Origin: a virus
IMG/VR virus record: IMGVR_UViG_3300050821_016647
Span: 32,001 to 96,000 of that record
Strand: one strand, 5' to 3'
DNA: 64,000 bases
Shown: positions 2,717-18,790 of the stretch, piece after piece
Layout: the number at the start of each line of letters is the position of its first letter
Numbering within the stretch: the first letter of the stretch is position 1
The notes under the pieces: model-generated
The model's database searches: none
What the model was told of the DNA's origin: nothing
What the model saw: the letters and a program-made list of their open reading frames with translations, nothing else
Made by a program: the position numbers and the translations under genes

Positions 2717-2748
2717 GCTCTGAAGACTACATCAGCTCCAGAGCGTCG

Positions 2749-2961: not shown

Positions 2962-3286
2962 GGTGCAACCCCGAGCGCTTCGCGCGCTGCTTGAGCTTCA
3001 ACGCCTCAGAAGAGGCGATGAGCGTCTCCCACGGCGCGTCACAGTGGAAAGCCGTGACAGAAATCCAGAGCGCACCTTCTGGGATTTCCAGAGAATCGAG
3101 CCCAAGCCACGGATAAACGAGCACATCGGTGCGCGGAGCAACTCCCCCACCCGCCGTAGGCTGGACGCTGAAAGGTAGATTGAGCTTGTGCAACGATTTG
3201 AGCGATCGACTCGCCGGACGCTTACCCAGAAACCACTCGCCGTTGGTGAGAACCGCCCACCACTCGTTCAGATCGAAGTCGTTCAT
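2954..3286 (-). CDS. Hypothetical protein
   Basis: 110 aa, in operon, globular composition. Confidence 0.6.
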   Translation of the reverse strand: MNDFDLNEWWAVLTNGEWFLGKRPASRSLKSLHKLNLPFSVQPTAGGGVAPRTDVLVYPWLGLDSLEIPEGALWISVTAFHCDAPWETLIASSEALKLKQRAKRSGLHLA

Positions 3287-3336
3287 GCCGGCAGACTACG
3301 CCGGCATGGGACTGTATGGCAAGTCGAGGATGCTGC

Positions 3337-3702
3337 TTACACGCCAGCGTTGAAGACGGCGTACCGGTACGTTCCGAGGTCACCTGTCTGCGTGACACCC
3401 GGCGTCCCGGACTCGTGGCTCGTTACCGTGAATCCGGTACCGGGAGTGATGTCGGCTTCCAGCGTTCCGAGCGCAGTGGAAGCATTGACCCCGGCGAGGG
3501 TCAACGCCACGGTCGATCGTGCCGTGATGGAAGGCAACACCACCGCCGGGCTCACGCCCGCCACGAGTGTGACCGTTCCGGTCGACAAGACCTGTCCAGC
3601 CAGCGCCGCTGCTGCGGCAGCTTGCTGAGCTCGCATCTCCGCATCCGCTGCCAATAACCCGGTCGTCTTCAGCTCGCTCTTGTCGCCCATGATCGTTCTC
3701 AT
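3337..3702 (-). CDS. Small beta-rich structural protein
   Basis: Ala-rich helix then T/G/V-rich strands ending YRYAVF; adjacent to fibre genes. Confidence 0.65.
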   Translation of the reverse strand: MRTIMGDKSELKTTGLLAADAEMRAQQAAAAAALAGQVLSTGTVTLVAGVSPAVVLPSITARSTVALTLAGVNASTALGTLEADITPGTGFTVTSHESGTPGVTQTGDLGTYRYAVFNAGV

Positions 3703-3760
3703 TTCTCTTTCCGCGCCTTAGCGCTTCATCTTACGCCATCTGGCGCAAACTTACTCTATT

Positions 3761-5563
3761 TTACAGTCCGCCTGTCGCTTTCATGAACGCCAGCGTCTGT
3801 GCGATCTCGGGCGCTGTCTGCCCAACGCAGTATGCAACCATCGATCGGTAATGCCCCTGGAACACCTGGCTCGTCGAGGCTCCACCCGCGGTGATCTGAC
3901 CTACCGTAGAGGAGAGCGCAACGATGTCGACCGGTCCGACGCCGGCCGTCGTTACGGGCGGATTGTTGTCCAGGTAGATCGAAAGGTTGCCCTCAAACAA
4001 CGTACCTAGAACGTAGTGCGCGACAGCCCCCGACACGCTTGCGCTTTCCGCGAACTTGGGCGGGTTCACGCCAGATGAGTCGTTGATGAACACGGAAAAG
4101 ATCACGTTGCCGGGAGTAGCGGAATCGAGGCCAACGGTAAGTCCGATTCCGTTTCGATTGCCTCCTCCGTTCTGCGTCGAGGCAAAGATGATCGGATTGA
4201 GCTGGGACGCCAGCCAGTCCTTCGTTCCCGTGTAGAGGACGCAAGCCGCGATCGTGAATTCATCGGGCTTGAGGAAGAACGTCCCCGCCATCATCGAGAC
4301 GTCGGCGTATTGGAACTGGCTCATCGACGGCGACTCGAGCGTGTCGAGCGTCGCCTTACCGTTGAAACCCGCCGGATTGAACGTCGCGGGCGTGGTGCCG
4401 TCAACGAAGGTCGTCCAGAGCTGACCGACGCGCGACGGGGCCTGGTCAAACCACTCCGGGACTGCACCTGCGTTGTTGAACACGCCGACGTCAGCGTTGA
4501 CGAACGTCGTCATCCCACGTGTCGACAGGTTGAACGCGAACGCACCTGGCGCAGGTGACCATGTCACTCCGTTGACGCCGTCAGCCGTCGCGACCGTTCC
4601 TGCGGCTGCGGCCACTCCGGTTGAATTTGTGGAGTTCAAACCAACGACCGGTGACGTAGGAACAGGAGCCGCAGCTCCACCGACGAGCGTGACGGTAGAT
4701 GGAATTCCTCCAGCCGTCGCGGTATAGGAAGTGTGACCACCACCACCATCAGTCAGTGTGAGTGTCGTTCCCGCTCCTGCTCCCGTACCTGTCAAATTAG
4801 CAGAAACGTTCTGTCCTGCTGACGCGTTGATCGACAACGCAATACCGTTGAGAATATCACCGAAGCTCTGCCACGATGTTGCGACCGTTGCGCTAGAAGC
4901 GAAGCTCGTAGCTCCGGCAAACAAAGTAAGGTTCGTTTCAACAGAGCACCCGACGAAAGTAGACGAACCCCCAATCGTCGAACCTGTTTGAATAATAAAA
5001 AGAGCCCCTACTGCGCCGGTAACATCACCGGTAACTGAAAGATCGCCGTCTACATTGGTCTTCGCTCCTAAGAAAAACTGACCGAAGAAACCGCCAGCGT
5101 TGACCCCCGTGAAGTTGAGAGTGACGTTCCCTCCGACCTCACACGCGTCAAGCCCTCCCAAGACAAGATTTGCTGCACCGGCTGCAACCCATAGAGGAAG
5201 GTCGAGTGTAATTGAACCGTTGAGAAAAAATCCAAGCGTACTTGCATCGAGTCCCGAGACAATGACGTTTGGGACCCAGGAAATGCTCTCAGTATACCCT
5301 CCTGGACCTACCTGAATAAGTGCAGGCTGATCAAATGTCGGCGCTATCCCTGCCGCCACCGTCATCGCCTTACCGATGGTCAAAAACGGCTTCTCATCCG
5401 TCCCGTCTCCCGTCGCGTCGTTTCCACCCTTGTTCACGATGATCGTGAACGTTGCCGCAGGCAAAGGGCCGTCACCTCCGCCACCGCCGCCGCCGAAGAA
5501 GCTCCTGTAAAGGGCTTCGTCGGCGATCTGACGTGTTGCCTTGAGGACGTTTGCGGTTCTCAT
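3761..5563 (-). CDS. Fibre/receptor-binding protein: DUF1565-like beta-helix plus C-terminal ConA/LamG-like domain
   Basis: IIVNKGGNDATGDGTDEKPFLT motif; C-terminus with EFTIAACV, HYVLGT...LSIYLDN, ITAGG...FQGHYRSMVAY resembling a LamG-type lectin. Confidence 0.7.
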   Translation of the reverse strand: MRTANVLKATRQIADEALYRSFFGGGGGGGDGPLPAATFTIIVNKGGNDATGDGTDEKPFLTIGKAMTVAAGIAPTFDQPALIQVGPGGYTESISWVPNVIVSGLDASTLGFFLNGSITLDLPLWVAAGAANLVLGGLDACEVGGNVTLNFTGVNAGGFFGQFFLGAKTNVDGDLSVTGDVTGAVGALFIIQTGSTIGGSSTFVGCSVETNLTLFAGATSFASSATVATSWQSFGDILNGIALSINASAGQNVSANLTGTGAGAGTTLTLTDGGGGHTSYTATAGGIPSTVTLVGGAAAPVPTSPVVGLNSTNSTGVAAAAGTVATADGVNGVTWSPAPGAFAFNLSTRGMTTFVNADVGVFNNAGAVPEWFDQAPSRVGQLWTTFVDGTTPATFNPAGFNGKATLDTLESPSMSQFQYADVSMMAGTFFLKPDEFTIAACVLYTGTKDWLASQLNPIIFASTQNGGGNRNGIGLTVGLDSATPGNVIFSVFINDSSGVNPPKFAESASVSGAVAHYVLGTLFEGNLSIYLDNNPPVTTAGVGPVDIVALSSTVGQITAGGASTSQVFQGHYRSMVAYCVGQTAPEIAQTLAFMKATGGL

Positions 5564-5567
5564 GGGT

Positions 5568-6116
5568 TCACTTTACGTGCACAACGAAGTGCTCAATCAG
5601 ATACGTCAGTCCTGTAACGACAGGAATGAGAATTCCCATATAGAAGAGATACTTATTTCTCGTTCTCTCTTCACGCTTCTCTTGAAGCTCTTCTCGCTGC
5701 TGAAGAGCAACCAACGCCTCTTTGGCGCCGCGCTCCTCGGCTTCCTTCTCTTTGATTTTCTCCTGAATGCGCGAGAGTTCCGCATGATCCATGACCCAGT
5801 GCGACCCGGTCGGTGATTGCGAAACGCGGACTTCGAGCTTCTCCGTCAGGGGCGGAGGTGGGACCGATCGAGTCTTGAGCGGAGGCGCCCCAACCGCACG
5901 AGCTACGTCTTCTAGACGCGCCTCGACTCGACCCGCGATCCCGTGCGCCGCCAGCGCAATGCCCTTGGTCTCGTCGATAGCGGCCTCGAGCTCAGGAATC
6001 TTCTTTTCGAGGTTGTCATTCACCTTGAACGCTAACGTGGCATATCCGCGTGCTAAGTCGATCGGTGCCATGGGGATGGCGGCCTCGTCATTTGCAGGTC
6101 GGGATGAGCTCGGCAT
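5568..6116 (-). CDS. Coiled-coil protein with C-terminal transmembrane helix
   Basis: Start moved to 6116 (TGATG overlap with upstream stop); E/K-rich coil; YLFYMGILIPVVTGLTYLI TM. Confidence 0.75.
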   Translation of the reverse strand: MPSSSRPANDEAAIPMAPIDLARGYATLAFKVNDNLEKKIPELEAAIDETKGIALAAHGIAGRVEARLEDVARAVGAPPLKTRSVPPPPLTEKLEVRVSQSPTGSHWVMDHAELSRIQEKIKEKEAEERGAKEALVALQQREELQEKREERTRNKYLFYMGILIPVVTGLTYLIEHFVVHVK

Positions 6117-7771
6117 CACGAACCCGCTACGGTACGCGCATGAGCTAGGTAGACGATGCCACCAATTCCAACTGCAACGACGGCAAGCCCAGCTACCAAA
6201 AGACCTGTGTTGGTGGAAGCCGGCGCTGCGGGAGCCACGAACGGAGCGACCGCTGGCGTCGATGTCGTCGTTGCACCGGTCCACGACGGCGTAAGCCCCT
6301 CCGGAATCGTCCCAGGCTGCGTCTGCGACGCAGGGGGAAGCGTCGTATCGCCCGTCCAGCCAGGTGTAGACGGTCCGGACGTTGGGGGTGCGTACGTAAT
6401 GTCGCCGATCGTCACCGATCCATCCGGGTTCGTCGTCGAGGCTGGCGGAAACGGAGCTTGACCGAGCCCTGCCATCGCACGCGCCGTGTCGCGTAGATCT
6501 TGAGCGTTCGCCGGGCCGAGCGGACCGACGCCCTTCAAGAGGTGAATCTGCGTGCTGCCGTTGTTGGGCTCCTGGTATACGCACCCGGGATCATCAAGCG
6601 CCGTCGAAGGATCCCACAAAAACTGATTGCAGGTACACGTGCCCCACTCCCACTCGCAGTAGGGGTGGTGCTCGTTGTCCGTCGGCTCCATCGAGGTCTG
6701 GCCGCAGCACCCGCCGAGACCGGTCGGTCCGATCGCCGTCGAAGGCTTTCCACACCCCGCGCACTGACCGACGCCCGTAGGTTCGCCAGAGAGCCCAACC
6801 GACAGCGTGTGCGCCGGCACTTCGGGATCGACTTCACCTGGATACCGATCCCAGATGTAATTCTGACCGAGCCCCGTCACGCCGTCGTCGCAACGATCGA
6901 CCTGGACGTTCCATCCGTCGCGCGCGGGGTAGAACTGGAAAATCCCTGAGACATCGCCGAAGCGATAGAAAACGACCTCACCCTGCTTCATCTTGGCGGC
7001 TTGGAGCTCTTTCCTCTTCGCCAAGACCTGCGCCGAATCACCCGTGTACGGCGACCACGAGCATGCGTCGACCTGCACCTCGGTCACGCCGTAAAAGTAC
7101 GGGTACCAGTAGCCGTCCCACCATCCACCGCCCCAACCCCAGCCTCCCCAGCCGTGGCCGTGGCCGTGACCGGGCGGAAATGGGTGATGCCCTCCTCCAC
7201 CGTGACCAGGATGTCCACCCCCTCCACCTCCGCCGCCTCCACCACCTCCTCCGCCCGGCGTCAGGTGAGGCGTCAGAAGACCGCCCGCGGGAGGAGCTGC
7301 GTGCTGAGGGGCATGCGCCGGTCGATTGCCGGCATGTCCTCCCCCGTGACCTCCACCGTGACCGCCTCCACCATGTCCGCCTCCGCCGCCTCGACCGAGA
7401 GCGCCGACGCCGGGATGGTGTTCTTCGTGCCTCTCAGCGTGCCTCGGAGTCTGCTGCCCTTGCTGCTGAGCCGTATGAAGCTTCGCAGAAGCTGCATTGT
7501 AGATCCCGACCAATCCGCCACCCGGACCACCTGCCGCATGTCCGCTGTGCCCTTTGTGAGAAGCAACATGGCCGCGACCCACACCCGTGGGCCACGACGC
7601 TGGTACGTGAAGCTGTTCTCCGACCGAGAAGTCAGAGAAGGTCTTCCCAAGCCCGGTCGGCAGCGTTGTCTTGTGCGGGTTCGCCGCCACGAGCTCCGGA
7701 AACCGTTGCCAGTTTCCGGTGAGCCTGTGCGCGATTCGTGCCGGCGTATCGCCTTGTCGGACGGTGTACAT
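6116..7771 (-). CDS. LysM-domain, Gly/His-rich modular virion protein with C-terminal membrane anchor
   Basis: YTVRQGDT...IA...ELVAANP...VGEQLHVP (LysM); 8 G[LV]G motifs; TM GLLVAGLAVVAVGIGGIVYLA. Confidence 0.8.
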   Translation of the reverse strand: MYTVRQGDTPARIAHRLTGNWQRFPELVAANPHKTTLPTGLGKTFSDFSVGEQLHVPASWPTGVGRGHVASHKGHSGHAAGGPGGGLVGIYNAASAKLHTAQQQGQQTPRHAERHEEHHPGVGALGRGGGGGHGGGGHGGGHGGGHAGNRPAHAPQHAAPPAGGLLTPHLTPGGGGGGGGGGGGGGHPGHGGGGHHPFPPGHGHGHGWGGWGWGGGWWDGYWYPYFYGVTEVQVDACSWSPYTGDSAQVLAKRKELQAAKMKQGEVVFYRFGDVSGIFQFYPARDGWNVQVDRCDDGVTGLGQNYIWDRYPGEVDPEVPAHTLSVGLSGEPTGVGQCAGCGKPSTAIGPTGLGGCCGQTSMEPTDNEHHPYCEWEWGTCTCNQFLWDPSTALDDPGCVYQEPNNGSTQIHLLKGVGPLGPANAQDLRDTARAMAGLGQAPFPPASTTNPDGSVTIGDITYAPPTSGPSTPGWTGDTTLPPASQTQPGTIPEGLTPSWTGATTTSTPAVAPFVAPAAPASTNTGLLVAGLAVVAVGIGGIVYLAHARTVAGS

Positions 7772-7803
7772 GGGCTTCCCTCAAACGTGACTTGCTGTGT
7801 GAC

Positions 7804-8235
7804 TTACCTGCGGCGCGCGTACGCGCGGTGAGAAGAACGTCGACCAAAGGACGACCTGGACTTTCCACCACCCTGAACTGTCTTGCGGTGAGCGAGGTAA
7901 GCAACCGCCGCGATTCCGCCGACAACCGCGATGGCGCCGAGGATGAGCGGCGTGTTGCCGGTCGTGAGCGACGAAAGGACCGAAGAAGCGGTACCCGTCG
8001 TCGAGGCAGCAGAGCCGACAGCTGTCCCACCGCCGCCGCCGCCGCTGCCCAAGATCGTTCCCGTGTATGTCGGGTCTGATCCGTCGGGACCAAGAAGCTG
8101 AGACGTTTCCGTCCCACCCTCGGCTCCGCCCGAAATGAGGCTGTTGCCTCCACTGTCCGTTCCGTCCGAGCCCGCTGCGGGCCCGAGCTGGCCTAGACCG
8201 CGCAGCAGTGAAGTGTGAAACGCCGGCTCATCCAT
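7804..8235 (-). CDS. Membrane-anchored virion protein with Arg-rich C-terminal tail
   Basis: Start MDEPAF with GAGAGG RBS; leader ...LLRGLGQ; G/S/T linker; TM LILGAIAVVGGIAAVAYLA; tail RRSSHRAYARRR. Confidence 0.8.
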   Translation of the reverse strand: MDEPAFHTSLLRGLGQLGPAAGSDGTDSGGNSLISGGAEGGTETSQLLGPDGSDPTYTGTILGSGGGGGGTAVGSAASTTGTASSVLSSLTTGNTPLILGAIAVVGGIAAVAYLAHRKTVQGGGKSRSSFGRRSSHRAYARRR

Positions 8236-8252
8236 GATCATCTTCCTCTCGT

Positions 8253-8972
8253 TCACCTGTTGGAAATTACGTATGCCAGTCCGAACCCGGCTGCGATGCT
8301 GATGACTCCCACGGCAAGCGGCACGCCCCATCCCGCGAGCGCATCGCCGATCGTCGAAGCGGTCGTGGTTGGCGTCGCCGTTTGACCAACTCCTCGAACC
8401 GCGACACGTCCAAACCCCACTGGAAAGCTCGTGCTCCCAGGAATGGACGGTGGAGCCGAGGGCGACGAGCACGGCGGCATCTGCACTGCGCACTTCGCTC
8501 CTTCGCAACCCTCGCATGGACCGCCTGCGGCGCAGCTGCCACAGCACGGCTTGCCCGTCGCCGACGTTCCGGGCGCCGCTCCTACACCTTCGCCCACGTG
8601 CTGCATCGCCGGTACGCCGCGACGACCCATGATCGTGAGAATGGGCTCGACGCCGTGGCCGCTGTCGTCCCCACCGCCGTCCGCTCCCGCTCGAGGACGC
8701 ACCGCATAGGCCGGCGCCGGCTGAGGATAGGCGTGACCTGCCACGCCCAACTGACGTGACGGAGCTCGAGACTCCCATGCTGGCGGCACTGTGAGGCGCT
8801 CGCCGACGTGGAGTTCTCGAAACGTAGGAATCTGACCGAGTCCGACGCGCGCGGTGACAGAGGACTTGTGTGCGTTCGCACGCACGAGCTCGCTCATTCG
8901 TGCAGGATTGCCCGTCAGTTTCTGAGCAATCACCATCGGCGTGTCGCCAGGTTGGACGATGTAGAAACTCAT
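8253..8972 (-). CDS. Second LysM-domain membrane-anchored protein
   Basis: Start MSFYIVQPGDT at 8972 (ATGA overlap, GGAGG RBS); paralogous LysM; Cys cluster KPCCGSCAAGGPCEGC; C-terminal TM. Confidence 0.8.
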   Translation of the reverse strand: MSFYIVQPGDTPMVIAQKLTGNPARMSELVRANAHKSSVTARVGLGQIPTFRELHVGERLTVPPAWESRAPSRQLGVAGHAYPQPAPAYAVRPRAGADGGGDDSGHGVEPILTIMGRRGVPAMQHVGEGVGAAPGTSATGKPCCGSCAAGGPCEGCEGAKCAVQMPPCSSPSAPPSIPGSTSFPVGFGRVAVRGVGQTATPTTTASTIGDALAGWGVPLAVGVISIAAGFGLAYVISNR

Positions 8973-10165
8973 CCGGGACCTCCGTTGCCTTGCCGCCATC
9001 GCGCAAGCCGGCGAAGAATGGCGTCCGTCGTAGGATTCTGCGGCGCTCTTCCGAGACCGGTCATGTTCGGGCGATGCACTACCGTCTTCGGCTCTCCACG
9101 GCCCGTACGCCACTGTTTAGCGATTCGTTGAATGATGCCGTCCGCCTTCGTGACTACGGCTGCGGGCAGTCCTGCCAGACGCGACGACGTGTTCGACGCA
9201 TTCGGATGAGGAGGCGACGCCGGACGCTTCGGCTGCGGCTCGCCGGACTGACCACCTTCGGGCAAACACGCGTCGTACGCGCTCGTATCCTCGGCGCTGC
9301 GTCGCATCGTGTTGTCGCCGACCTCGGTCGTGTCGCGCGTAAGTCGGTCACCATCGCCGGGACGTCGGTACGTCTTCGGTGATCCGGTCGGCGCCTGCTC
9401 TTCCATCTCGAAGATGAGTGATCCTGCGATGCGGCCGTAGATCGACAGGGGGTAGTTCTGGACGAACGCGTCCTCGGGCGTCGTGCCTTGCGTCGTCAAA
9501 AACTGAAGTGCTCCACCACCCGTCGTGGGCGGTGGCGCGGAGCGGGTACTCGGGTCCGTCTGCTGCACGCTCGCCATGAAAACGATGTTGCAGGGGCCCT
9601 CGAACGCCACGTCGCAGACAGAAGGCTCACTCCAACGGTCGCAACGCAAGTCGAAGAAGCGACCGAGCTCAGGAGTAAGAACGTTACCCGGAAACGATCC
9701 GCCGTACGGAGGCGTGACGACATTTCCGACGATGGTCTCGAAGATCTGAGCCGGTGTCTGACTCACCTCGAACGCCATTCCCTCGGCGTTCTGCGCGTTG
9801 GCCAGAATCTTGGCACCCGGCGGAAGCTTGCGGATGCCCCAGAGAACGTTACCGTCGACATAACTCCACGTCGGCGTCACCACCGGCCTCTCGAGCGGGT
9901 AGGTGTACGCGCCACCACCCGTACCGAGTGGAATCTGGTCGAGAAGCGTCAGGTACTGGCGAAATCCCACCACTCGCCCGCGTTGCCCGGCGTTGAAATA
10001 CTTCGCGCACAGCACAAAGAGCTGCCGCTGCGTCGGAACCTGCGGACCGCCGTTCGTCCCGATGAAGAGGCCGAGGTCATACGGACCACCGAGTGGGTCC
10101 GAGCCAACAAGCTGCCGGTTCGGATTCAGCCCGACCGTCACGATTTCTAGGCGGCTGCGACGCAT
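8969..10165 (-). CDS. Beta-rich structural protein, candidate jelly-roll minor capsid/vertex protein with disordered C-tail
   Basis: GGAGG RBS; strand-like segments RGRVVGFRQYLTL, CNIVFMASVQQ, YGRIAGSLIFEM parallel those in 11366..11971 and 12087..13328. Confidence 0.5.
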   Translation of the reverse strand: MRRSRLEIVTVGLNPNRQLVGSDPLGGPYDLGLFIGTNGGPQVPTQRQLFVLCAKYFNAGQRGRVVGFRQYLTLLDQIPLGTGGGAYTYPLERPVVTPTWSYVDGNVLWGIRKLPPGAKILANAQNAEGMAFEVSQTPAQIFETIVGNVVTPPYGGSFPGNVLTPELGRFFDLRCDRWSEPSVCDVAFEGPCNIVFMASVQQTDPSTRSAPPPTTGGGALQFLTTQGTTPEDAFVQNYPLSIYGRIAGSLIFEMEEQAPTGSPKTYRRPGDGDRLTRDTTEVGDNTMRRSAEDTSAYDACLPEGGQSGEPQPKRPASPPHPNASNTSSRLAGLPAAVVTKADGIIQRIAKQWRTGRGEPKTVVHRPNMTGLGRAPQNPTTDAILRRLARWRQGNGGPG

Positions 10166-10189
10166 TACGCTGCCTCCCGTGCTATAAAT

Positions 10190-10220
10190 GCTGCCTGCGG
10201 CGCGTCAACGCCCAGGCAGC
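10190..10220 (+). promoter_or_regulatory. Stem-loop just downstream of a TATAAAT element, upstream of the endonuclease
   Basis: gctgcctg-c-ggcg-[cgtcaa]-cgcc-caggcagc; tataaat at 10183-10189. Confidence 0.4.
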
Positions 10221-10254
10221 GTGGCTCACCTCGACCTTTGCAGGGAGGCGAACG

Positions 10255-10299
10255 ATGAAGATTGTGAATGGTTTCCGTGCGCGTGTCGAGGTCGGTTGA
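10255..10299 (+). CDS. 14-aa leader ORF coupled to the endonuclease
   Basis: GGGAGG RBS at 10243-10248, MKIVNGFRARVEVG*, TGA immediately followed by ATG 10300. Confidence 0.35.
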   Translation: MKIVNGFRARVEVG

Positions 10300-11295
10300 A
10301 TGAAAACCGACCCGGAGAGCCGTTGGTTCACCATCTACGTTCACACGTGCGACGCGGACCCGCGAAGCAGCGGCGATCGTCTTGGTAAAGGAAAGCAGTA
10401 CGTCGGGCAGGTGGTTCATTTGCTCGGTGACGCTTCGGACACGCCGGAACTGGCAATGAAAAGGCGATGGCGAGCAAAACGTTATGAACGATCGCTGATC
10501 GGTCATACTGTCCGTCAGTTCGGAACAAAGAATTTTCGTCACGAGATTCTTGATACTGTACTCGGACAGACCGCGGCCAACCTCGCTGAAGCCGAGTGGG
10601 CTGAAAAACTCGATACCTACGAACCACACGGGTACAACAGAAGAAAATGTGGAACGCAGGGTGCACTGACTTTTGAGGAACGCAGTGCGTTTGGCCGCAT
10701 CGCGCGTCGTAAAGGAATGGAAACGCTTGGTCCAGAAGGACGAAGCGCAGCCATGTACAAGGCTAAGGAAACGTTGGGACCCGAAGGACGAAAGGCAATT
10801 AGTCGTAAAGCAATGGAGACACTCGGTCCCGAAGGACGGAGCGCGGCTGCTCAAAAAGCGAAGGAAACGCTGGGACCCGAAGGACGAAAATCGGCCACTC
10901 GCAAGGCGAATGAAACGAAGGGTCCTGAAGGTCGAAGTGCTGCCGTCCGCAAGGCGCTGAAAACAATGGGTCCTAAAGGTCGGCACGCACGTGCACTCAA
11001 ATCGAATATGACATCGGGACCAGATGGTCGAAGCGCCCGTGTGCGCAGAGCCAATGCGACGAGAGGGCCTGAAGGACGAAGAGCCTCTGCTCTCAAAGGA
11101 ATCGAGACTCAAGGTCCCGAAGGACTGAAACAACGCCTCTACAAGGCTTGGGACGTGCGTTGGTTCAAAGCGCTTCGACTCGCTCTTGCACAAAAAGACT
11201 TTGTGAGAGCTATCGGCGTTCTCAAGGCGTGCCTCTACGCCACAATGCGGAGGCTGGCCGAAGATCCTCTCTTTGGCGAACAGATAGTCGAATAG
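10300..11295 (+). CDS. Free-standing GIY-YIG homing endonuclease with nine 16-aa repeats
   Basis: FTIYVH...KQYVGQ GIY-YIG-like motif, downstream R, E (EAEW) and GYN; antisense insertion in the structural operon. Confidence 0.75.
   Translation: MKTDPESRWFTIYVHTCDADPRSSGDRLGKGKQYVGQVVHLLGDASDTPELAMKRRWRAKRYERSLIGHTVRQFGTKNFRHEILDTVLGQTAANLAEAEWAEKLDTYEPHGYNRRKCGTQGALTFEERSAFGRIARRKGMETLGPEGRSAAMYKAKETLGPEGRKAISRKAMETLGPEGRSAAAQKAKETLGPEGRKSATRKANETKGPEGRSAAVRKALKTMGPKGRHARALKSNMTSGPDGRSARVRRANATRGPEGRRASALKGIETQGPEGLKQRLYKAWDVRWFKALRLALAQKDFVRAIGVLKACLYATMRRLAEDPLFGEQIVE
10711..11142 (+). repeat. 9 x 48-nt (16-aa) coding tandem repeat K(A/G)xET(L)GPEGRxAxxx
   Basis: KGMETLGPEGRSAAMY / KAKETLGPEGRKAISR / KAMETLGPEGRSAAAQ ... 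KGIETQGPEGLKQRLY. Confidence 0.9.
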
Positions 11296-11365
11296 CGGGC
11301 CTGATGTCGCCGCGTATTGACTACTGACTATTTTTCGATCTCTCCACCTGCGCACGGGTGCCTCC

Positions 11366-11971
11366 TCACGGGCACTCCACCGCCGGGGGGACCCAAAATC
11401 CGAGCTCGCGAAGTTTGCAGGCCGCAACGTCCACGCTGATTTCGTCTACTGTGTGGTCCAAAAATTGCCAGCCGTTGAACGTAAGTACACAGTTGTACGG
11501 GGGCGCATTGGGCTCGCTCGCCGGGAACACTTGCGTGAGCATGAACTCGATCTCGATGTTCTGTTGCTTGTAGAGCGGCCACCCGCTCACCCAGCGCGAC
11601 GAGATGAGGTTCACGAAGTTGTTGAGCGGCGTGAAGTTCGGCGAGACGAGGTAGCGCGGCCCCGAGTGCACCGTGCAGCGCACCGAGATGCCTGGCGCCA
11701 TTCGGAGGTTCGCGTCGTACAGCGTCTTGAAGATGTTGCCCGCGAAGACGTTCGGCTGCTGAAGATCGTACTGGAGATTGTCTATCCAAGTTCTTTGGGC
11801 AATGGTTGTATCAAGACCAGCTTCGATGGGTTGCTGCCCCAGAGCCGCAGAGGAGAATGAACCCGATGCGTTGATCGAGATTGGAATCCGAGGAATCCCG
11901 AGGACGATCCCATACGCCGCGATCGGGTCCATGACCGCTAGGTCTTGAATGTACTGCGGCTTCGGTTCCAT
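11366..11971 (-). CDS. Beta-rich structural protein, candidate small single-jelly-roll capsid protein
   Basis: 201 aa; strands TWIDNLQYDL, ISVRCTV..RYLV, WPLYKQQNIEIEFML, YNCVLTFNGWQF; directly downstream of the MCP candidate. Confidence 0.55.
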   Translation of the reverse strand: MEPKPQYIQDLAVMDPIAAYGIVLGIPRIPISINASGSFSSAALGQQPIEAGLDTTIAQRTWIDNLQYDLQQPNVFAGNIFKTLYDANLRMAPGISVRCTVHSGPRYLVSPNFTPLNNFVNLISSRWVSGWPLYKQQNIEIEFMLTQVFPASEPNAPPYNCVLTFNGWQFLDHTVDEISVDVAACKLRELGFWVPPAVECP

Positions 11972-12012
11972 GCTCGTCCTCCTTTCCTTCTCTCGTTGAA
12001 GCTAAGCGCGTG

Positions 12013-12071
12013 AAAAACAAGATGCCCCGAAGCCACCCGACTCTCCCTCCTAGGAAAGAGAGCCGGGCAGC
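12013..12071 (-). terminator. Long hairpin plus U-rich tail after the MCP candidate
   Basis: On minus: gctgcccggctctc...gagagtcgggtggc (14-bp stem with GU pairs, 12032-12071) followed by cttgttttt. Confidence 0.55.
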
Positions 12072-12086
12072 TCCAGAGCTCTACGA

Positions 12087-13328
12087 TCAGCCGCCCGCTG
12101 ACTGCGCGGTCCCGACCACGCCCGCCGGGACGAGGTGGTTCAGGATGTACTGCTTCCAGGGTCCCCAGATCTCGAAGCCCTTGATGAGAATGGCGAGCTG
12201 GAGCGCGCCACCCTTCATGAGCACGCGATCCGTCTCGACGGCCTTCTCGACCACGATCGTGGTCGGCTCTGCCGTGTCCGCGAACGACAGCTCTGCGATC
12301 GTAACCGCCGTGAGGCCGTCCGTCGCCGGGCCGATCGGCATCACGGTGTGCGTGGTGCCGAAGCCATGGTCGTTGTTGGACAGGTATTGCTTCATGAGGT
12401 TCTGGTGGTACTCGTCCTGCGCCTTGAGCACCATCCCGATCGGGATGCCGCGCTCGAGCAGAACCGGCTTGAACAGCTTCCGGAACGGCTGGAGCATGCC
12501 CGTCATCCCCTGCGTGCGGAGGCCGCCGTAGGTGACGTCGAGCAGATCGTACGCGCGGGTCGGGTGGTACACGCCCGTGCTCGTCGCGCCGCCGGTCGTG
12601 ACCGACCCGATGCGCTGCGAGTTGATCGGGAGGAACGTGCCCGTATCACCGATGGGCGCGCCCTGGTACTTCGCGTTCACGCGGTCGACGTACCGCTGGA
12701 ACGCCTGCTGCGAAGAGCCCGCCGCGACGGCCTCGGCGTACGAGCCGAAGTAGCTCACGTCCGCCGCCAGCTCGTTGATCAGCAGGTAACGCTGCTGCAT
12801 GATCCACTGGAACTGGTAGGCGTTCATGAGGTGCCAGAGCGCGTTCTGCGCGCAGACGCCCCACTCGAGCGTGGCCGGGGTCATCGTCTGACCGCCCGAG
12901 AGTCCGAGGCCGGTCAGGTCATCGGTCGCGAACGAGTCGGGCGAGTTCGGGATCGCCCCGGATGCCGGCTGGAAGTTGATGTAGTTGCCGATCTGCGAGC
13001 CCTGCTGGGGCTCGGCAAACCCGTGCACGCCGAAGCCGATGACCAGCATGTCGACTTGGAGGATGCCGTTGATGACGAACGAGCTGTCGACGTCCTGGAC
13101 CCCCGGTACGGCCTTGGGGTTTTGGAGCACGTCGATCTCGTCACCGAACGTCCCGTCGATGAAGCCGTCGGCGACGGGCAGATCGATCGTCCACGTCACG
13201 TACTCGATGACGGGCACCTGCGTAAAACCGCAAGTGAGAACGCTGTTGACGACGTTGTCGGAGGGAGCCGCACCGAGTCCCACCATGCGGCTGGGATTCT
13301 CGAGCTTGTGCATGCTTGAGCTTTTCAT
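12087..13328 (-). CDS. Candidate major capsid protein (jelly-roll type)
   Basis: 413 aa, beta-rich, AGGAG RBS, very strong C/G third-position bias, followed by a terminator-like hairpin, next to the core protein; N-terminal leader ...ENPSRMVGLG; no HK97 features seen. Confidence 0.55.
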   Translation of the reverse strand: MKSSSMHKLENPSRMVGLGAAPSDNVVNSVLTCGFTQVPVIEYVTWTIDLPVADGFIDGTFGDEIDVLQNPKAVPGVQDVDSSFVINGILQVDMLVIGFGVHGFAEPQQGSQIGNYINFQPASGAIPNSPDSFATDDLTGLGLSGGQTMTPATLEWGVCAQNALWHLMNAYQFQWIMQQRYLLINELAADVSYFGSYAEAVAAGSSQQAFQRYVDRVNAKYQGAPIGDTGTFLPINSQRIGSVTTGGATSTGVYHPTRAYDLLDVTYGGLRTQGMTGMLQPFRKLFKPVLLERGIPIGMVLKAQDEYHQNLMKQYLSNNDHGFGTTHTVMPIGPATDGLTAVTIAELSFADTAEPTTIVVEKAVETDRVLMKGGALQLAILIKGFEIWGPWKQYILNHLVPAGVVGTAQSAGG

Positions 13329-13441
13329 CTGTTTCTCCTGCGCCTGCGGGAGACCCGCATTCGCATGATGGTTTCAAGGCGTTGGACGAACTACGAACTA
13401 TCGAGGCACGCACTCACTAAACGAGCTGAGCGCGTTGAACT

Positions 13442-15139
13442 TCAGTCCTCCGGGAACGAGGCGTACATCCCGAAGCCCTTGGGGAGAGCTCCGAGACACG
13501 ACTCATCACGAATCGCTGCCATCGCAGCAGCGTGCGTAGCGGCGATGCCGCCAGAGGTGCTCGTGCACGGAGCGCACTGCGGACCCGTGCTGGGTCCACC
13601 TGGCAGAACCGTTCCGGCCGGCGGGTCCTGGACCACGTCGCCGGTATTCGTGAGAATACCGTGCGGGGTCTGGAGCGGATGCGCAGGGTAACCGACAGGA
13701 ATGGTCGGTCCACCGCCCGGTGCATAGATCGCCGGAGGCGTGCTGCCGCCGGGCAATCCAGGAGGAGCGTTCCCTGGGCCGCCAGGCGAGTACGGCGCCT
13801 GGTTCGGCTGGGACGCTGGAATCACCATGGACGTCGGTGCAATCGGCGTGTTCACGGTGAGAGGCGAGGGAGCGTTCTGTCCCACACCGCGTGCCTTGGG
13901 CCCAGGGTCCCTTAGCGCCGGACGGCGACCGACACCGCGGGGGAGACCCGCGAGCGGAGTCGACGTCGTGGGAGCTGCCGCGGTTCCGGCTGCCGGAGTG
14001 GCCGCCGTCACCGCCGCCTGCGCTTCGATCTCGGCGAGGTAGAGCTGCTGTCCGAGCGCCGTCGAACCGATCATGGAAGCCATGACCGACTTGAACAGGT
14101 TGCCGAACAGAGCCGCGCCCGCGCCGAGCATCATGCCCTGAAGGGCCGCGCGGCCCCACGGGGAATCGACGAACGCCGCCGCGATCCCTGGCACCGCAGC
14201 CACGCCGAACTGCGCGGCCATGGACTGCCAGGATGGGAATGCCTGAGTCGCGACGTCGTTCGGAACGACCTGCGTGCCGCCCGGTGGAACGCTGTTCGCT
14301 GGCTGACCTGCCGCAACGGCTGTCGTCGACATGTACCGTCCGACGAAGTCCGCGAGACCGTAGCCGAGGATGCCGGTGATTCCGACGAGCACGAGCTCAC
14401 CACCAGACAGCGGGTTCGAGAGCACATAGCCCTCAGCACCGATCGTGTCGTACGCCTCGCGCTCGCTGTAGCCGGACCGACCGTAGGCCGGCAACCGGTG
14501 CGAACGCGGAGTGCGACGTGCATGTGACCGACGACGGCTCGAGCTGCGGCGCGTCTTGCGGTGCCGACGCGGAGCCGCACGACGAGTGCGACGCGCATGC
14601 GACCGACGGACCGAACGACGACGCCGACGCGGCGCAGAGAGCCCGAGGCGACGCCGACGCCGACGAATGCCCTTCAGGGCCGCCTTGCGGTGCCGACGCG
14701 GTTGCCCGAACCACTCCTTCGCGCGCGCCCTCTTCCGGCGGCGACGCGGAGCTGCGCGACGAACCGCACGACGCCGACGCCGACGGACCGGAGCCGCGTG
14801 GTGCCGACGCGCCGCGAGGCGACGCCGACGCCGACGGATGCCCTTGCGAGCGGCACGACGGTGACGGATCGGTTGTCCCTTCCAATCGGAAGCCTTCGCC
14901 CTGCGACGCCGACGGCGCTTGGGGGCTGCTGCCGCGGGGGCTGCAACGCGACGCCGACGCCGACGACGCGGGGCGGCTGCCGGAGCGGCTGCCCGGCGAC
15001 GACGCCTGCGCGGAGCTGCGGCGGGGGCTGCGGCCCTGCGACGGCGACGGCGCGGCGCTGCGGCGGACGACTTCACGAAGTGGCCCCTCGAGTTTCTTTT
15101 GCGACCGCGGGCTGCGCGCGACTTGCGGCGTGACTTCAT
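13442..15139 (-). CDS. Protamine-like Arg-rich core protein fused to membrane segments and a Pro-rich tail (alternative start 15502)
   Basis: AGGGAG RBS before MKSRRK at 15139; repeated APRRRRRR(A)n; duplicated W(K/F)GQPxRHR(R/K)AAxKG; hydrophobic helices after LSNPLSGG; two RGVG motifs. Confidence 0.8.
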   Translation of the reverse strand: MKSRRKSRAARGRKRNSRGHFVKSSAAAPRRRRRRAAAPAAAPRRRRRRAAAPAAAPRRRRRRRVAAPAAAAPKRRRRRRAKASDWKGQPIRHRRAARKGIRRRRRRLAARRHHAAPVRRRRRRAVRRAAPRRRRKRARAKEWFGQPRRHRKAALKGIRRRRRRLGLSAPRRRRRSVRRSHARRTRRAAPRRHRKTRRSSSRRRSHARRTPRSHRLPAYGRSGYSEREAYDTIGAEGYVLSNPLSGGELVLVGITGILGYGLADFVGRYMSTTAVAAGQPANSVPPGGTQVVPNDVATQAFPSWQSMAAQFGVAAVPGIAAAFVDSPWGRAALQGMMLGAGAALFGNLFKSVMASMIGSTALGQQLYLAEIEAQAAVTAATPAAGTAAAPTTSTPLAGLPRGVGRRPALRDPGPKARGVGQNAPSPLTVNTPIAPTSMVIPASQPNQAPYSPGGPGNAPPGLPGGSTPPAIYAPGGGPTIPVGYPAHPLQTPHGILTNTGDVVQDPPAGTVLPGGPSTGPQCAPCTSTSGGIAATHAAAMAAIRDESCLGALPKGFGMYASFPED

Positions 15140-15360
15140 TGGCAGTGTCTCCCTAGTGGAAAAACCCGGCGCTTTGGCCGACTTCGAAACGGTAACGAAG
15201 TAGCCTGTAGACGTCAAACGTCTCACATGATTGGCAGTCGTCGAACGCGGTTTACGACCACGTGAATAGCGACGGATCACCGAGAATTTGGCTCTCGAAT
15301 GCTTGCGACGTCGCGGCGCACTATTCGACTTGTCGGAGCGAGTTTTCGTGGCTACTCGCT

Positions 15361-15427
15361 TTGTAATACGCTTGTGTGCAGCGCTCGTAGACCGATTTCG
15401 CGATACACGCTTAGGTTTTGTATTACG
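15361..15427. promoter_or_regulatory. Two copies of TTGTA(A/T)TACG upstream of the core/MCP genes
   Basis: TTGTAATACG-ctt-GTGTGC at 15361-15379 and TTGTATTACG at 15418-15427; same motif at 28111 and 43736. Confidence 0.5.
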
Positions 15428-15543
15428 AGCGCCGGCTTCGTCGCTTTCACTCCTGAATGCGTTCATTCGAGCCGCATAATCCCCGCCGGATGACTTCGCC
15501 ATCCACAACGAATACGCCCACGCGGGCGGAACGACAACTCGCT

Positions 15544-15981
15544 CTACGGGAACACGTACCCGCGGTCGTCTACGATGCAGCCGTCTCCCAGTGACAACTT
15601 GTAAATGCGACCAGCTTTCCACAGAGTGGGTTGCCGCGATTTGAACGGGTGATGGAAGCCACCACTGGCTCGCTTGCCCTTGCGCACGTAAAGAATCTGC
15701 GCAACTTCTCCGACTTTCTTCCAGCCATCCTTCGGAATCTTCGGCAGCGTCGCGAGCACCGCTTGGTAGTCGGCACCGAAGTAGCGCCGGTGCGATCGAT
15801 TCATCTCGACCGGACGCCGCGTCTTCTTGAAGGGTCCAAAAAAGACATCACACTTCGGCAACACGACCCCTTCCTGGTCGTGGAACGTCCCATAGGATGC
15901 CGGCAAGCGAATGGTCTTACCGTTGGCCATCTCGAAGACCACGCGGTCCGACTCGACACGAATGGACGGCGACTCGCTCAC
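15544..15981 (-). CDS. Basic hypothetical protein (145 aa)
   Basis: GTG start overlapping the upstream TGA (GTGA); K/R-rich globular sequence. Confidence 0.7.
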   Translation of the reverse strand: MSESPSIRVESDRVVFEMANGKTIRLPASYGTFHDQEGVVLPKCDVFFGPFKKTRRPVEMNRSHRRYFGADYQAVLATLPKIPKDGWKKVGEVAQILYVRKGKRASGGFHHPFKSRQPTLWKAGRIYKLSLGDGCIVDDRGYVFP

Positions 15982-16379
15982 GACGCCCCCTGCTGAAGCG
16001 AGCTCGAGTACCCGCCGGGGGCCCCGCCTGAAGCAACGTAATTGAGCATGTTGGCCGTGGCCCACGTTTGGTAACCACTAACGGAGGGTGCCGTCCCAGC
16101 CGGCAACGACGCAACGTACATCGCCGGCAGCTGTGCAATCGAAGCGGCAAGCGCCGTCGACTGCGCCGCAGTCGGCTGCATCCCTCCGATGCCTGCGTTG
16201 GTCGCAAGGATCTGATTCAAGATCCCGTTCTGCACGTCCGCGCTCGGGGGCCAGACGCTGTTCTGATACGTGGTGTAAACCATCCACCCGACGCCGCCGA
16301 CGACGACCGCGCCCAGACCCAGCAGAAGCCACTGCTGAGCCTGGGGGGAAAGCGGGTTACGTCGGGAGCGCCGTCTCAT
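15978..16379 (-). CDS. Small membrane protein: Arg-rich N-terminus, NP motif, TM
   Basis: MRRRSRRNPLSPQAQQWLLLGLGAVVVGGVGWMVY. Confidence 0.8.
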   Translation of the reverse strand: MRRRSRRNPLSPQAQQWLLLGLGAVVVGGVGWMVYTTYQNSVWPPSADVQNGILNQILATNAGIGGMQPTAAQSTALAASIAQLPAMYVASLPAGTAPSVSGYQTWATANMLNYVASGGAPGGYSSSLQQGAS

Positions 16380-16392
16380 TCGCCGACCGCGA

Positions 16393-16692
16393 TCAGATGG
16401 CCGCGAGATTCGACGCGTAGGGCTGGAAGATGGATGGCAGATTCGCAACGGCGGCCTGACCGGCCGGCGTCTGAAGCCATGCCTGCTCGTTCGCAGTCAC
16501 CGGCGTCGAACCCGCCGGTAGCGTCGCGGCATACGCGGCGTTGAGCTGGGACGCCTCGTAGATCGTGTACACGATCCCGGCCGCGGTAAGCGTCCCGAGG
16601 CCGATGAGCAGCCACTCGATTCCGGTCGGATTCTCTTTGCCGTACGCGCGAGAGCTGCTGAAACGACGGCGTCGATGATGTCTTCTTCGCAT
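16393..16692 (-). CDS. Small membrane protein, paralogue of 15978..16379
   Basis: MRRRHHRRRRF...KENPTGIEWLLIGLGTLTAAGIVYTIY. Confidence 0.8.
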   Translation of the reverse strand: MRRRHHRRRRFSSSRAYGKENPTGIEWLLIGLGTLTAAGIVYTIYEASQLNAAYAATLPAGSTPVTANEQAWLQTPAGQAAVANLPSIFQPYASNLAAI

Positions 16693-16722
16693 GGGAATCT
16701 CCTGTTGAGGTGACCGACGTTA

Positions 16723-17646
16723 TCAGATCCTTCTTGGACCTGGAACTTTGCCGACTCCACGCACCATCTGCTGCGAAAACGCGTAGTCCTTTGCCTCTTT
16801 CACCGGAGTGCCGTCTGGAAAACACGGCAATCCTCTCTCGAGCCCGACAGGCACGTAAGACGCGCTGTCAGCTTGAGGCGCGAAGGCGTGAGCCATCGGA
16901 AAGACGCCAACGCCTGTTGGTTGAGCTGCTGGCTCTGTCTGCACAGGCACTGCGCCCACTCCAATGAAGTCGCCGTGGTCCGGTTCTTTTCCCATGGTCG
17001 TCGGAGCTCCGTTAGGTGTGGAAGACATTGTCCCGCTGATGGGGTCGACCCACCATTCCTTGGTCGCCGGATAGGACTCGTCCACGCCGTATTTCTCTGA
17101 CGACGGATCGACCTTCATCCAATTACCGTTGTCGCCGAGCACGGCGCAAATGACGTGGGTTGCCTGAGAGGTCCCGTACGCCTGACCTACGATCCGTGTC
17201 TCGATGCCAATCGAGAGCATTGCCGATGCGAACGCGATGCAGCGGTCATCACAATCGGCGGCAGGCATGCAGAGCCCATGTTCGTCCAGACAAAGCGTAC
17301 GAGCAGGAGTCGCCATGAGCTCGGTGTTGACCGGGTCCTGGACGTAAACGGTCCTTTTTCGAATCTCGTTGAGGATGGCTTGCGCCTGTCCTTTGACGGT
17401 CTTCGGCTTGCCCGCGGCAATGAGAACTTTCCCGGCGAACGCGCGGAGCCGCGGGTCATTACGGCCGTCGCGAATGTACTTCGACATCTCGTTGAGCGAG
17501 TAATTCGTCCCTTCAACCCCCGGTGGATGTCGGTCCTGAATCACCGGCGTTCCAAGCGCTTTCGCCGCCTCGGTCGCAGACGGAGCGAAGCCTTTGCCGA
17601 AACCAGCAATCGGGCGGGGAAATGCGGGAACGTCGGAATCGCTCAT
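16723..17646 (-). CDS. Transglutaminase-like (papain-fold) enzyme, candidate maturation protease or cross-linker
   Basis: Start MSDSDV two nt after the upstream stop; ADCDD (Cys), THV (His), WMKVDPS (Asp) catalytic-triad pattern; upstream YVQDP motif. Confidence 0.8.
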   Translation of the reverse strand: MSDSDVPAFPRPIAGFGKGFAPSATEAAKALGTPVIQDRHPPGVEGTNYSLNEMSKYIRDGRNDPRLRAFAGKVLIAAGKPKTVKGQAQAILNEIRKRTVYVQDPVNTELMATPARTLCLDEHGLCMPAADCDDRCIAFASAMLSIGIETRIVGQAYGTSQATHVICAVLGDNGNWMKVDPSSEKYGVDESYPATKEWWVDPISGTMSSTPNGAPTTMGKEPDHGDFIGVGAVPVQTEPAAQPTGVGVFPMAHAFAPQADSASYVPVGLERGLPCFPDGTPVKEAKDYAFSQQMVRGVGKVPGPRRI

Positions 17647-17648
17647 GG

Positions 17649-18224
17649 TCACCCCGCCAGTAAAACGTTCGGTGCGACCCAGTAATTGTTGAAGACCTGC
17701 GTCCACCCGGCCCCTGGCGATCCGACCTGGTACACGGCCTTGAGGTGGTGCGGCATCGCCGTCACACCGGTAGGACACCAGATCCAATACTCACCGACCT
17801 GATGCCACTGACCTTGACCGGCTTGCGGCGCCTTCGACGGCATCGCCCCGTGCGTGTACCAGAAGCCGCGCGGATCGAACTTGGGAGGAATCTGCGCGCC
17901 AGCGGCGACGAGCGTCGGCGCAGCTTGAATGTTGGTCTTGTGGCCTTCAACGATCGAAAGAGACGTGTGCTCCGGAGGAGGCGACATCGCAACATCAGGG
18001 CGCATCAGTGCTCCAACACCTTCCGGCTCTTTCGCGGCTCCTTCCGACTCCTTCCCTACTCCCTCCGGTTCCTTCCCTACACCCTCCGGCTCCTTCACCG
18101 TACTCTTCGTCGGTGCCGAGGTATCCGGCCACTTCTTCCTCTCTCCCCCAGGAAGCAGACCCAGACCTCGAATGATCCCCTGAGGGAAGATGTAGTCCTT
18201 GTCGGGATTGCGATCGTCACTCAT
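17649..18224 (-). CDS. Virion protein with KEPEGVG heptad repeats and aromatic/Gly-rich C-terminus
   Basis: AAGGAG RBS, ATGA overlap; leader KDYIFPQGIIRGLG; 4 x 21-nt repeat at about 18011-18095. Confidence 0.75.
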   Translation of the reverse strand: MSDDRNPDKDYIFPQGIIRGLGLLPGGERKKWPDTSAPTKSTVKEPEGVGKEPEGVGKESEGAAKEPEGVGALMRPDVAMSPPPEHTSLSIVEGHKTNIQAAPTLVAAGAQIPPKFDPRGFWYTHGAMPSKAPQAGQGQWHQVGEYWIWCPTGVTAMPHHLKAVYQVGSPGAGWTQVFNNYWVAPNVLLAG

Positions 18225-18745: not shown

Positions 18746-18790
18746 GCGCCTACAGTATCAGGCACTCCCGAAGTCGTCGAGAATGGGCTT

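Follow-up and report, generated by a model that had tools for sequence, protein, structure and literature searches.

The open reading frame (ORF) considered here lies on the plus strand of a 64,000-nucleotide (nt) stretch of viral DNA (the window), which comprises bases 32001-96000 of the complete 127,529-bp virus record IMGVR_UViG_3300050821_016647 with its direct terminal repeats. Its product of 331 amino acids (aa) joins a predicted GIY-YIG nuclease domain to a tandem array of short basic units, here termed GPEGR units, and the gene sits antisense in the junction between two genes of a particle-gene cluster, p201 and p398 (Table 1). Of the 173 ORFs in the codon-score gene set, it alone is a confident plus-strand gene in positions 1..43239, as an initial annotation of the sequence had stated; three small plus-strand ORFs (13740..14042, 18351..18836 and 31853..32059) have weak scores, with longer minus-strand ORFs overlapping the first two. 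That annotation placed the start at 10183, which is the first base of a TATAAAT box and not an ORF start; the gene itself is real, with its ORF running from 10300, and the block that carries it is missing from relatives. Full-length members among its 66 homologues are 39-51% identical. The deviant codon usage reported earlier was also found, with a G+C content at third codon positions (GC3) of 0.50 compared with a genome mean of 0.74 (standard deviation 0.07), a value below 0.55 in only 2 of the 173 ORFs, and a codon score per codon of 0.039 as against 0.2-0.57 for the neighbours. Such foreign codon usage suggests a recent arrival.

Table 1. Features of the endonuclease locus (window coordinates)
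Feature	Coordinates	Strand	Basis or remark
Inserted block, 1,200 bp, carrying the endonuclease gene	10166..11365	.	p398 start to p201 stop
Endonuclease gene, 331 aa	10300..11295	+	ORF call; 66 homologues
GIY-YIG catalytic domain (predicted), aa 9-116	10324..10647	+	Fold match, conserved motif residues
Pre-array unit, aa 124-140, Thr-x-Glu-Glu-Arg-Ser type	10669..10719	+	Orthologue alignment; E127 and S129 nearly invariant
Nine 16-aa GPEGR-type units, aa 141-284	10720..11151	+	Repeat analysis; net charge +20, isoelectric point 11.1
C-terminal helical hairpin (predicted), aa 285-331	11152..11292	+	Model; without the helix-turn-helix tail of longer orthologues
TATAAAT box (10183-10189), TG one base upstream, extended -10-like	10180..10189	+	Sequence; block edge
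Leader hairpin, 7-bp outer and 4-bp inner stem	10190..10218	+	Minimum-energy and centroid folds of 10166-10320
Upstream ORF, 14 codons and TGA, in frame with the main ORF and abutting its ATG	10255..10299	+	Sequence
8-bp hairpin with the main ATG in its 7-nt loop	10290..10312	+	Leader fold
Terminator-like hairpin and five-U run after the stop, weak	11281..11337	+	Fold z = -1.4, not significant
Sigma-70-like promoter match, about 95 nt upstream of p398, inside the block	10261..10289	-	9 of 12 consensus matches
p398, downstream flanking particle-cluster gene	8969..10165	-	Homologues directly after p201 in relatives L003-L005
p201, upstream flanking particle-cluster gene	11366..11971	-	Homologues 64-79% identical in three viral contigs
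p413, likely major particle protein, two genes upstream	12087..13328	-	Codon bias, atlas lead

No significant family for the 331-aa product emerged from Pfam or NCBIfam, and when its full sequence was searched against PDB chains only chance rows were returned (E>1). Because the Pfam models miss the protein, its assignment to GIY-YIG rests on fold, motifs and weaker profile matches. In an AlphaFold model built from 46 sequences (mean predicted local distance difference test score, pLDDT, 88.2), aa 1-120 lie mostly at 89-96, with one 10-residue block at 70. When the model was compared with 48,161 chains by VIA-align, the sole chain with Z>=8 was 1ln0_A, the catalytic domain of I-TevI, which matches aa 9-116 (Z 11.0, root-mean-square deviation 2.3, 88 of 92 residues aligned); Foldseek gave 1ln0/1mk0 a probability of 1.00 and template modelling scores of 0.72-0.75 by target, and also listed UvrC (1yd5). 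Across 15 sequences including I-TevI and three T4 Seg-type proteins, Y13, Y34, G36 and N113 do not vary and E97 is nearly invariant, E97 being paired with I-TevI Glu75 by their common Glu-x-x-Trp spacing (the MAFFT placement is two columns off); R56 is nearly invariant among 11 orthologues. The profile matches comprise the PHROG homing-endonuclease families phrog_314 (1.7e-6) and phrog_7168 (4.5e-5), a Staphylococcus phage PH15 gene annotated as SegB homing endonuclease and matched by aa 31-113 (tblastn, E 8e-6), and sub-threshold matches of orthologues to SegE_GIY-YIG (P0008 at 2e-4 and 22 bits, P0002 and P0011 weaker), the orthologues' Pfam nuclease scores being 14.8-22 bits against a cut-off of 25. 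The proposed GIY-YIG identity is thus borne out by fold and motif residues, though by no Pfam match, and the gene is free-standing, apparently intact and, as had been claimed, antisense, inside a particle-gene cluster. Judged by its sequence and modelled fold, the nuclease domain looks intact, and the gene would add a new, divergent member to the GIY-YIG homing endonucleases.

Behind this domain the nine-fold repeat reported earlier is present as described, with nine units of exactly 48 nt (16 aa) and Gly-Pro-x-Gly in 9 of 9. Tandem Repeats Finder catches only part of the array (period 48, 4.7 copies, 10711-10936; period 96, 1.9 copies, 10706-10889) because the units are just 42-73% alike as DNA, and the conserved residues use different codons from unit to unit, a sign that the peptide is under selection and not that the units were duplicated recently. 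With a model derived from the nine units and put through one iteration, the 66 homologues were found to hold 355 distinct units, with 16-aa spacing in 264 of at least 297 neighbouring pairs. Over all these units the conserved residues are Thr at position 2 (76%), Gly at 4 (94%), Pro at 5 (65%), Glu at 6 (79%), Gly at 7 (81%), Arg at 8 (63%) and Lys at 14 (84%), positions 9-13, 15 and 16 are variable, and large hydrophobic residues are so few that the unit has no core. The number of units does vary, the check proposed initially: 10 orthologues that agree in their N- and C-terminal domains have between 3 and 9, the longest consecutive run in the family being 14. Among orthologues the distal units are the best conserved and the proximal ones come and go. 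Three orthologues (P0002, P0006 and P0007) have an extra tail resembling a helix-turn-helix after the C-terminal hairpin, where Pfam lists none; helix-turn-helix families were matched in P0023, and both the endonuclease and P0003 are without such a tail.

A HMMER search of 1.84 billion representatives with the array alone found 180 proteins at E<=0.001, 57 of them at E<=1e-10. Of the 150 best matches, 145 were scanned with Pfam (the five exceeding 1,100 aa were left out), giving 24 GIY-YIG, 8 SegE_GIY-YIG and 4 LEM-3 GIY-YIG matches, among which overlap is possible, together with 2 HNH, 1 HNH_3, 3 HTH_23, 1 NUMOD3 (E<=0.01) and 9 weak LEA_5 matches. The GPEGR repeat is therefore a small uncatalogued family, found mainly behind GIY-YIG and sometimes behind HNH nuclease domains. 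Its carriers include Dictyobacter, Methylocystis, a Vibrio phage and a chytrid fungus. Arrays without a recognised nuclease domain occur in P0017, P0030, P0043, P0064 (Dictyobacter), P0012 and P0019, P0066 (chytrid fungus); among these nuclease-less proteins are records from bacterial chromosomes and one from a fungus, and homing endonucleases are not the only carriers of the module. The Vibrio phage 150E35-1 protein (P0063; locus L001, 2797-3441) is annotated as hypothetical and resembles the C-terminal half of a GIY-YIG domain, followed by an arm that mixes Ser/Thr-capped and GPEGR-type units and by a Cys-Pro-His-Cys zinc-finger-like end. The string LGPEGR was absent from all 8.4 million papers and preprints searched, and no description of such a nuclease-associated tandem array was found in the literature searched, which was available in part.

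In the whole-protein model aa 125-297 form almost one helix, with pLDDT 91-97 over the array. Foldseek with this model returned over the array long-helix proteins only (NONO/SFPQ, probability <0.1), no VIA-align row covers the array, and the C-terminal region 271-331 matched generic helical hairpins only (Z 6-7, VIA-align). A globular repeat fold of the TALE kind was considered and is ruled out as modelled, the AlphaFold prediction being a single helix. Since Gly-Pro-x-Gly recurs at intervals of 16 residues and the charge is +20, a free helix of 26 nm is doubtful. We take the models to mean that the array is helical when ordered and without a globular repeat fold; one continuous basic helix would fit a DNA-hugging arm or a tether at least as well as a reader of bases. 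Weak Pfam matches to LEA_5 and HSP9/12 were seen at 10720-11151 of the window, and to HC2 (histone-like) in relatives. Members of these three families are known to lack order by themselves and to become helical when bound to a partner.

The repeat matches no catalogued NUMOD, the hidden Markov model check suggested by the initial annotation: PF07460 finds nothing on the protein (E<=1) or the genome (E<=10), while the same search gives 13 matches in T4. Three observations would still link it to such modules: its position behind nuclease domains of the same kinds, mixed arrays and the I-TevI linker. The pattern Ser/Thr-x-Glu-x-Lys/Arg, with which 7 of 11 T4 NUMOD3 units start in our own reading of their alignment, stands at unit positions 4-8 in 144 of 1236 windows lying one or two periods from detected units, and at each of 14 other phases in 0-10 of about 1240. 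Sub-threshold NUMOD3 matches directly follow the GPEGR units of P0052 and P0054, and the endonuclease's own array is headed by a unit of the Ser/Thr-capped type (aa 124-140). When the I-TevI linker (aa 93-169) is compared with a two-unit profile, it obtains 10.1 bits, which 1 of 5000 shuffles attained; within the linker, residues 124-131 are the unit model's best match among 32 T4 frames (E 0.011), and MAFFT aligns them with a unit column at a similar distance behind the catalytic Asn. A homologue search with this linker returned 5 near-identical proteins only, and conservation was checked in one 83%-identical homologue. The boundaries of the I-TevI regions DI and DT were taken from PMC12774661 and PMC2853131.

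NUMOD3 is described as a minor-groove alpha-helix in I-TevI as well as in I-HmuI, with three predicted copies in I-BmoI (PMC2853131, PMC3664794), and I-BmoI as partly disordered without DNA (PMC3664794). The I-TevI linker is reported to wrap the minor groove, to tolerate sequence change and to position the nuclease (PMC4065259). Residues 148-206 of I-TevI have been crystallised (PMC4065259), so that the unit-like stretch 124-131 falls in the uncrystallised part of the linker. On sequence grounds we regard the array as a probable variant of the nuclease-associated modular repeat idea, outside NUMOD3 as that family is defined, and the I-TevI linker may hold one copy of the unit.

The mobility of the gene was assessed in relatives found through the p201 protein, namely three viral contigs (L003, L004 and L005) in which homologues of p413, p201 and p398 follow in the same order as in the window. 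None of the three carries the endonuclease, the p201 stop and the p398 start lying about 10-75 nt apart, and the endonuclease family occurs nowhere in their records, two of them complete; in the genome of the window this query does recover itself. The gene is thus not fixed in its relatives, nor does its repeat match a known NUMOD; such a match, or a nuclease both inactive and fixed in all relatives, had been named at the outset as grounds for abandoning the proposal. The closest viral relatives with the p413-p201-p398 module, L003 and L004 (records G001 and G002), have complete 60-63-kb genomes that carry terminal repeats and are half as large as the 127.5-kb genome. Rfam detected no intron or other family in 9000-12500 at E<=1. 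Viral contig searches with the protein or the alignment returned no DNA of a close homologue, and a metagenome contig search gave two incomplete loci of weak similarity (L019 and L020; 39% across aa 74-116), which were not used.

The stretch or part of it is present in 12 soil-metagenome runs from nine studies, and contigs from four runs (X4-X7) were compared with the window. Contigs of 100% identity span the junction of p398 and the leader (X4, X5) and the 3' junction (X5, X7). Run X6 differs. Its endonuclease contigs show 1, 2 and 3 differences (10117-10456, 10499-10825 and 10806-11038), that is 6 in about 900 nt or about 99% identity; its p201 contig shows 44 differences and 2 gaps in 525 nt, none listed in the first 80 nt beside the block, so that divergence starts about 90 nt into p201; and its p398 contig shows 12 differences in 147 nt, the flanks overall being 90-92% identical. 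A near-identical gene with some 50-90 nt of flank in a genome otherwise diverged by 8-10% would fit the pattern left by homing with co-conversion.

All four upstream elements of the initial annotation are present: the TATAAAT box, a hairpin, an upstream ORF of 14 codons and a TGA that abuts the in-frame main ATG. TATAAAT occurs twice on the plus strand and never on the minus strand of the 127.5-kb genome, where 1.1 are expected per strand, and a sigma-70 scan did not call it; from its sequence the box would be a candidate for the endonuclease gene's promoter. Folding of the 155-nt leader gives z = -4.9, equalled by 0 of 200 shuffles. The upstream ORF has a strong, purine-rich Shine-Dalgarno sequence of six bases (10243-10248), 6 nt upstream, and the predicted start-codon hairpin (10290..10312) also pairs part of the main ORF's weak one. 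The endonuclease would be transcribed from the promoter-like box at the block edge, and its translation would be gated by the start-codon hairpin, which ribosomes completing the coupled upstream ORF would open; given the predicted folds, such translational control is plausible. Regulated, hairpin-gated translation is reportedly also a feature of T4 I-TevI and of mobE in an Aeromonas phage. At the other end of the gene, the scan that did not call the TATAAAT box did not call the 3' hairpin either, and the minus-strand fold there has z 0. One sigma-70-like site was found against 0.3 expected, a consensus match only; by its sequence, this minus-strand match inside the block could restore p398 expression after interruption of the p201-p398 operon. 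No RNA run is among the sequencing runs listed with the stretch.

The neighbouring genes had been called capsid-like: for p413 this stands as a feature-based lead to major capsid clusters (atlas feature score 0.93 with only 116-123 shared features, hence a lead only), p413 surpassing all other genes of the window in codon score and GC3 (0.91), and for p398 no such lead was obtained. Pfam, PHROG and the atlas feature comparison found no family for p398, a pattern scan with it gave no loci and its homologues were located beside p201 instead; more generally, no Pfam or PHROG family was matched by the window's particle genes. A 726-aa minus-strand ORF with very long Arg-rich repeats (13442-15622) adjoins the likely particle protein gene; the codon-score gene set omitted it and chose a weak plus-strand ORF inside. 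Elsewhere the window encodes ThyX, RadC, a helicase, an AAA_24 ATPase, a PD-(D/E)XK nuclease, a DNA methylase and a D5-type primase. The genome's sole HNH match (PF01844, E 1.8e-14, above the cut-off) lies at 55682-55819 on the minus strand in a 137-aa open frame, whose product may, from this match, be a second homing-type or packaging-associated nuclease.

We read the locus as a free-standing GIY-YIG homing endonuclease gene, inserted antisense in a particle-gene junction, with the GPEGR arm as the part that holds DNA, and assign this reading a probability of roughly 65%. The gene would have entered a short junction between two co-transcribed particle genes in antisense orientation. Its product would have three parts: an I-TevI-like catalytic domain (aa 9-116), a basic arm (aa 124-284) and a small helical end (aa 285-331). 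The arm, one Thr-x-Glu-Glu-Arg-Ser unit and nine GPEGR-type units, would become ordered on DNA as a chain of short basic helices hinged at the Gly-Pro-x-Gly points, and we infer that the array binds DNA. On an endonuclease-free genome the arm would extend over tens of base pairs close to the p201/p398 junction, much as the I-TevI linker or NUMOD3 extends along the minor groove, with a possible additional anchor in the small C-terminal hairpin, and the tethered GIY-YIG domain would nick both strands at a distance. In a mixed infection, repair from endonuclease-carrying genomes would then copy the gene and some of its flank.

Several results weigh against this reading. Where the catalytic domain is concerned, the Pfam GIY-YIG (PF01541) and SegE (PF19835) models find nothing at E<=1 on the protein or the genome, and the His that shortly follows the conserved Arg in I-TevI and several orthologues is Lys here. 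Folded alone, the array is a single uninterrupted 173-residue helix (pLDDT 95.5) and not a chain of helices and hinges, and against solved structures its model has no usable match (one row for the array alone, E 5.2). As to known DNA-binding modules, hhalign of 357 two-unit windows with the 11 T4 NUMOD3 units gives a probability of 0.1% (E 0.45), in a comparison whose reversed control reaches 0.5% and whose short profiles have low power; the match to the I-TevI linker spans 8 residues and was found post hoc, and a single-sequence array search of T4 yields nothing at E<=10. On mobility, identity to the relatives in the DNA of the junction is just 55-78%, too low for the homing site to be read, the endonuclease-free joint is absent from the X4-X7 contigs, and the X6 mosaic consists of short contigs at depth below 5, with their linkage inferred.

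Other readings of the array were considered alongside this one. It could be mainly a length-setting tether or ruler, an amplified I-TevI-type linker unit that reads little sequence, with copy number tuning the distance from anchor to cut and with specificity supplied by cut-site preference and by the C-terminal helices, including the helix-turn-helix of longer orthologues. The range of 3-9 units between the same end domains, the better conservation of the last units over the variable proximal ones, the unit-like stretch at about the same distance behind the catalytic Asn of I-TevI, the rod-like continuous helix of the AlphaFold model and the description of the I-TevI linker as a distance determinant (PMC4065259, PMC2853131) would all suit a ruler; yet the endonuclease and P0003, which are without a helix-turn-helix tail, would have little else with which to bind DNA, a net charge of +20 exceeds the need of a passive spacer, and the repeat also occurs behind HNH domains or without a recognised nuclease, as a binding module would. 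We regard the ruler as the main rival, a tentative one with a minor share of the probability. More ambitiously, the GPEGR unit might be a new modular DNA-tracking repeat in which each unit contacts DNA over a fixed step, variable positions 9-13, 15 and 16 set the preference, copy number (3-14 seen) sets footprint and cut distance, and the I-TevI linker holds a single ancestral copy; in this strong form the proposal seems to us unlikely. It is very improbable that the array is a disordered histone- or LEA-like basic segment that coats a polyanion without targeting and owes its regularity to easy tandem duplication, as the weak LEA_5, HSP9/12 and HC2 matches, the scarcity of large hydrophobic residues with no core and the array model's lack of a match among solved structures might suggest. 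A coating segment would hardly keep a strict 16-aa register (264 of at least 297 spacings), or Gly at 94%, Lys at 84% and Pro, Glu and Gly at 65-81% at fixed unit positions despite diverged codons; moreover, array proteins with a recognisable domain mostly carry site-specific nuclease domains, and an in-register pattern is common to GPEGR arrays and NUMOD3-type units.

Two further explanations concern the gene as a whole. A former homing endonuclease might have been kept by the virus, whether to exclude or degrade co-infecting relatives with no copying of the gene or for an antisense effect on the flanking particle genes, and its antisense position in a tightly packed operon, the promoter-like site facing p398 within the block and the identical copies in runs of several studies would be in keeping with this. 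The intact catalytic positions, the absence of the gene from all three relatives, the foreign codon usage that suggests recent arrival and the resemblance of the X6 mosaic to transfer along with flanks speak instead for a mobile gene, and make domestication distinctly unlikely. That ORF 10300..11295 is a chance antisense open frame and not a gene, as might be supposed from its low codon score and from the many long antisense ORFs that GC-rich genomes yield, is scarcely credible in view of its 66 homologues (39-51% identity when full length), its confident predicted fold, the lack of a competing minus-strand gene with homologues over it and the absence of the whole block from relatives.

Fused genome editors make use of the small monomeric nuclease of I-TevI, which comes from the GIY-YIG homing endonucleases. 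The family described here offers a natural case in which the whole arm is a regular array, variable in copy number and described by no family library. Joined to nuclease domains of at least two kinds, the array lends itself to testing binding length, spacing and preference one unit at a time. [quoted passage not shown] If the modular DNA-tracking reading were true, arrays could be rebuilt to aim a small monomeric GIY-YIG nuclease; if the array were only a charged tether, this would be an ordinary homing endonuclease with an unusual linker. A selfish nuclease gene appears to be moving within the particle-gene cluster of a little-known soil virus group.

Among the closest known systems is I-TevI, encoded in the td intron of T4 (1LN0/1MK0), which provides the best structural match of aa 9-116, has Tyr, Tyr, Arg, Glu and Asn at equivalent positions, and likewise places an N-terminal nuclease before an elongated basic segment (in contact with DNA in I-TevI, and presumed to be so here) in which residues 124-131 resemble one GPEGR-type unit. 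Unlike I-TevI, the gene described here is free-standing and antisense; its product is only about 20% identical and is missed by the Pfam GIY-YIG models, its motif tyrosines are 21 residues apart as opposed to 11, and nine tandem units replace the zinc finger, the canonical NUMOD3 and the helix-turn-helix domain. In its genomic setting, as an optional intergenic gene between conserved phage genes, it resembles the Seg endonucleases of T-even phages (SegB and others), to which its N-terminal domain is linked by the SegB-annotated gene of PH15 and its orthologues by weak SegE_GIY-YIG matches below the cut-off, and for which the expected action is cutting of the endonuclease-free genome with co-conversion of flanks (PMC2330249). 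It differs from them in being transcribed against the surrounding operon, in carrying a GPEGR array where T4 endonuclease ORFs have NUMOD3 units, and in residing in a 127-kb soil virus whose particle genes are unassigned. Finally, the GPEGR unit shares with NUMOD3 (PF07460) its occurrence as a short repeated unit behind GIY-YIG or HNH domains, its basic character and predicted helicity, the Ser/Thr-x-Glu-x-Lys/Arg units found in register inside GPEGR arrays, and the sub-threshold matches to canonical NUMOD3 after the GPEGR units of P0052 and P0054. It departs from NUMOD3 in having no Pfam match and a profile-profile probability of 0.1%, in its strict 16-aa period, in the Gly-Pro-Glu-Gly-Arg that replaces the Ser/Thr cap box, and in runs of up to 14 consecutive units, compared with two or three in I-HmuI and I-BmoI (PMC3664794).

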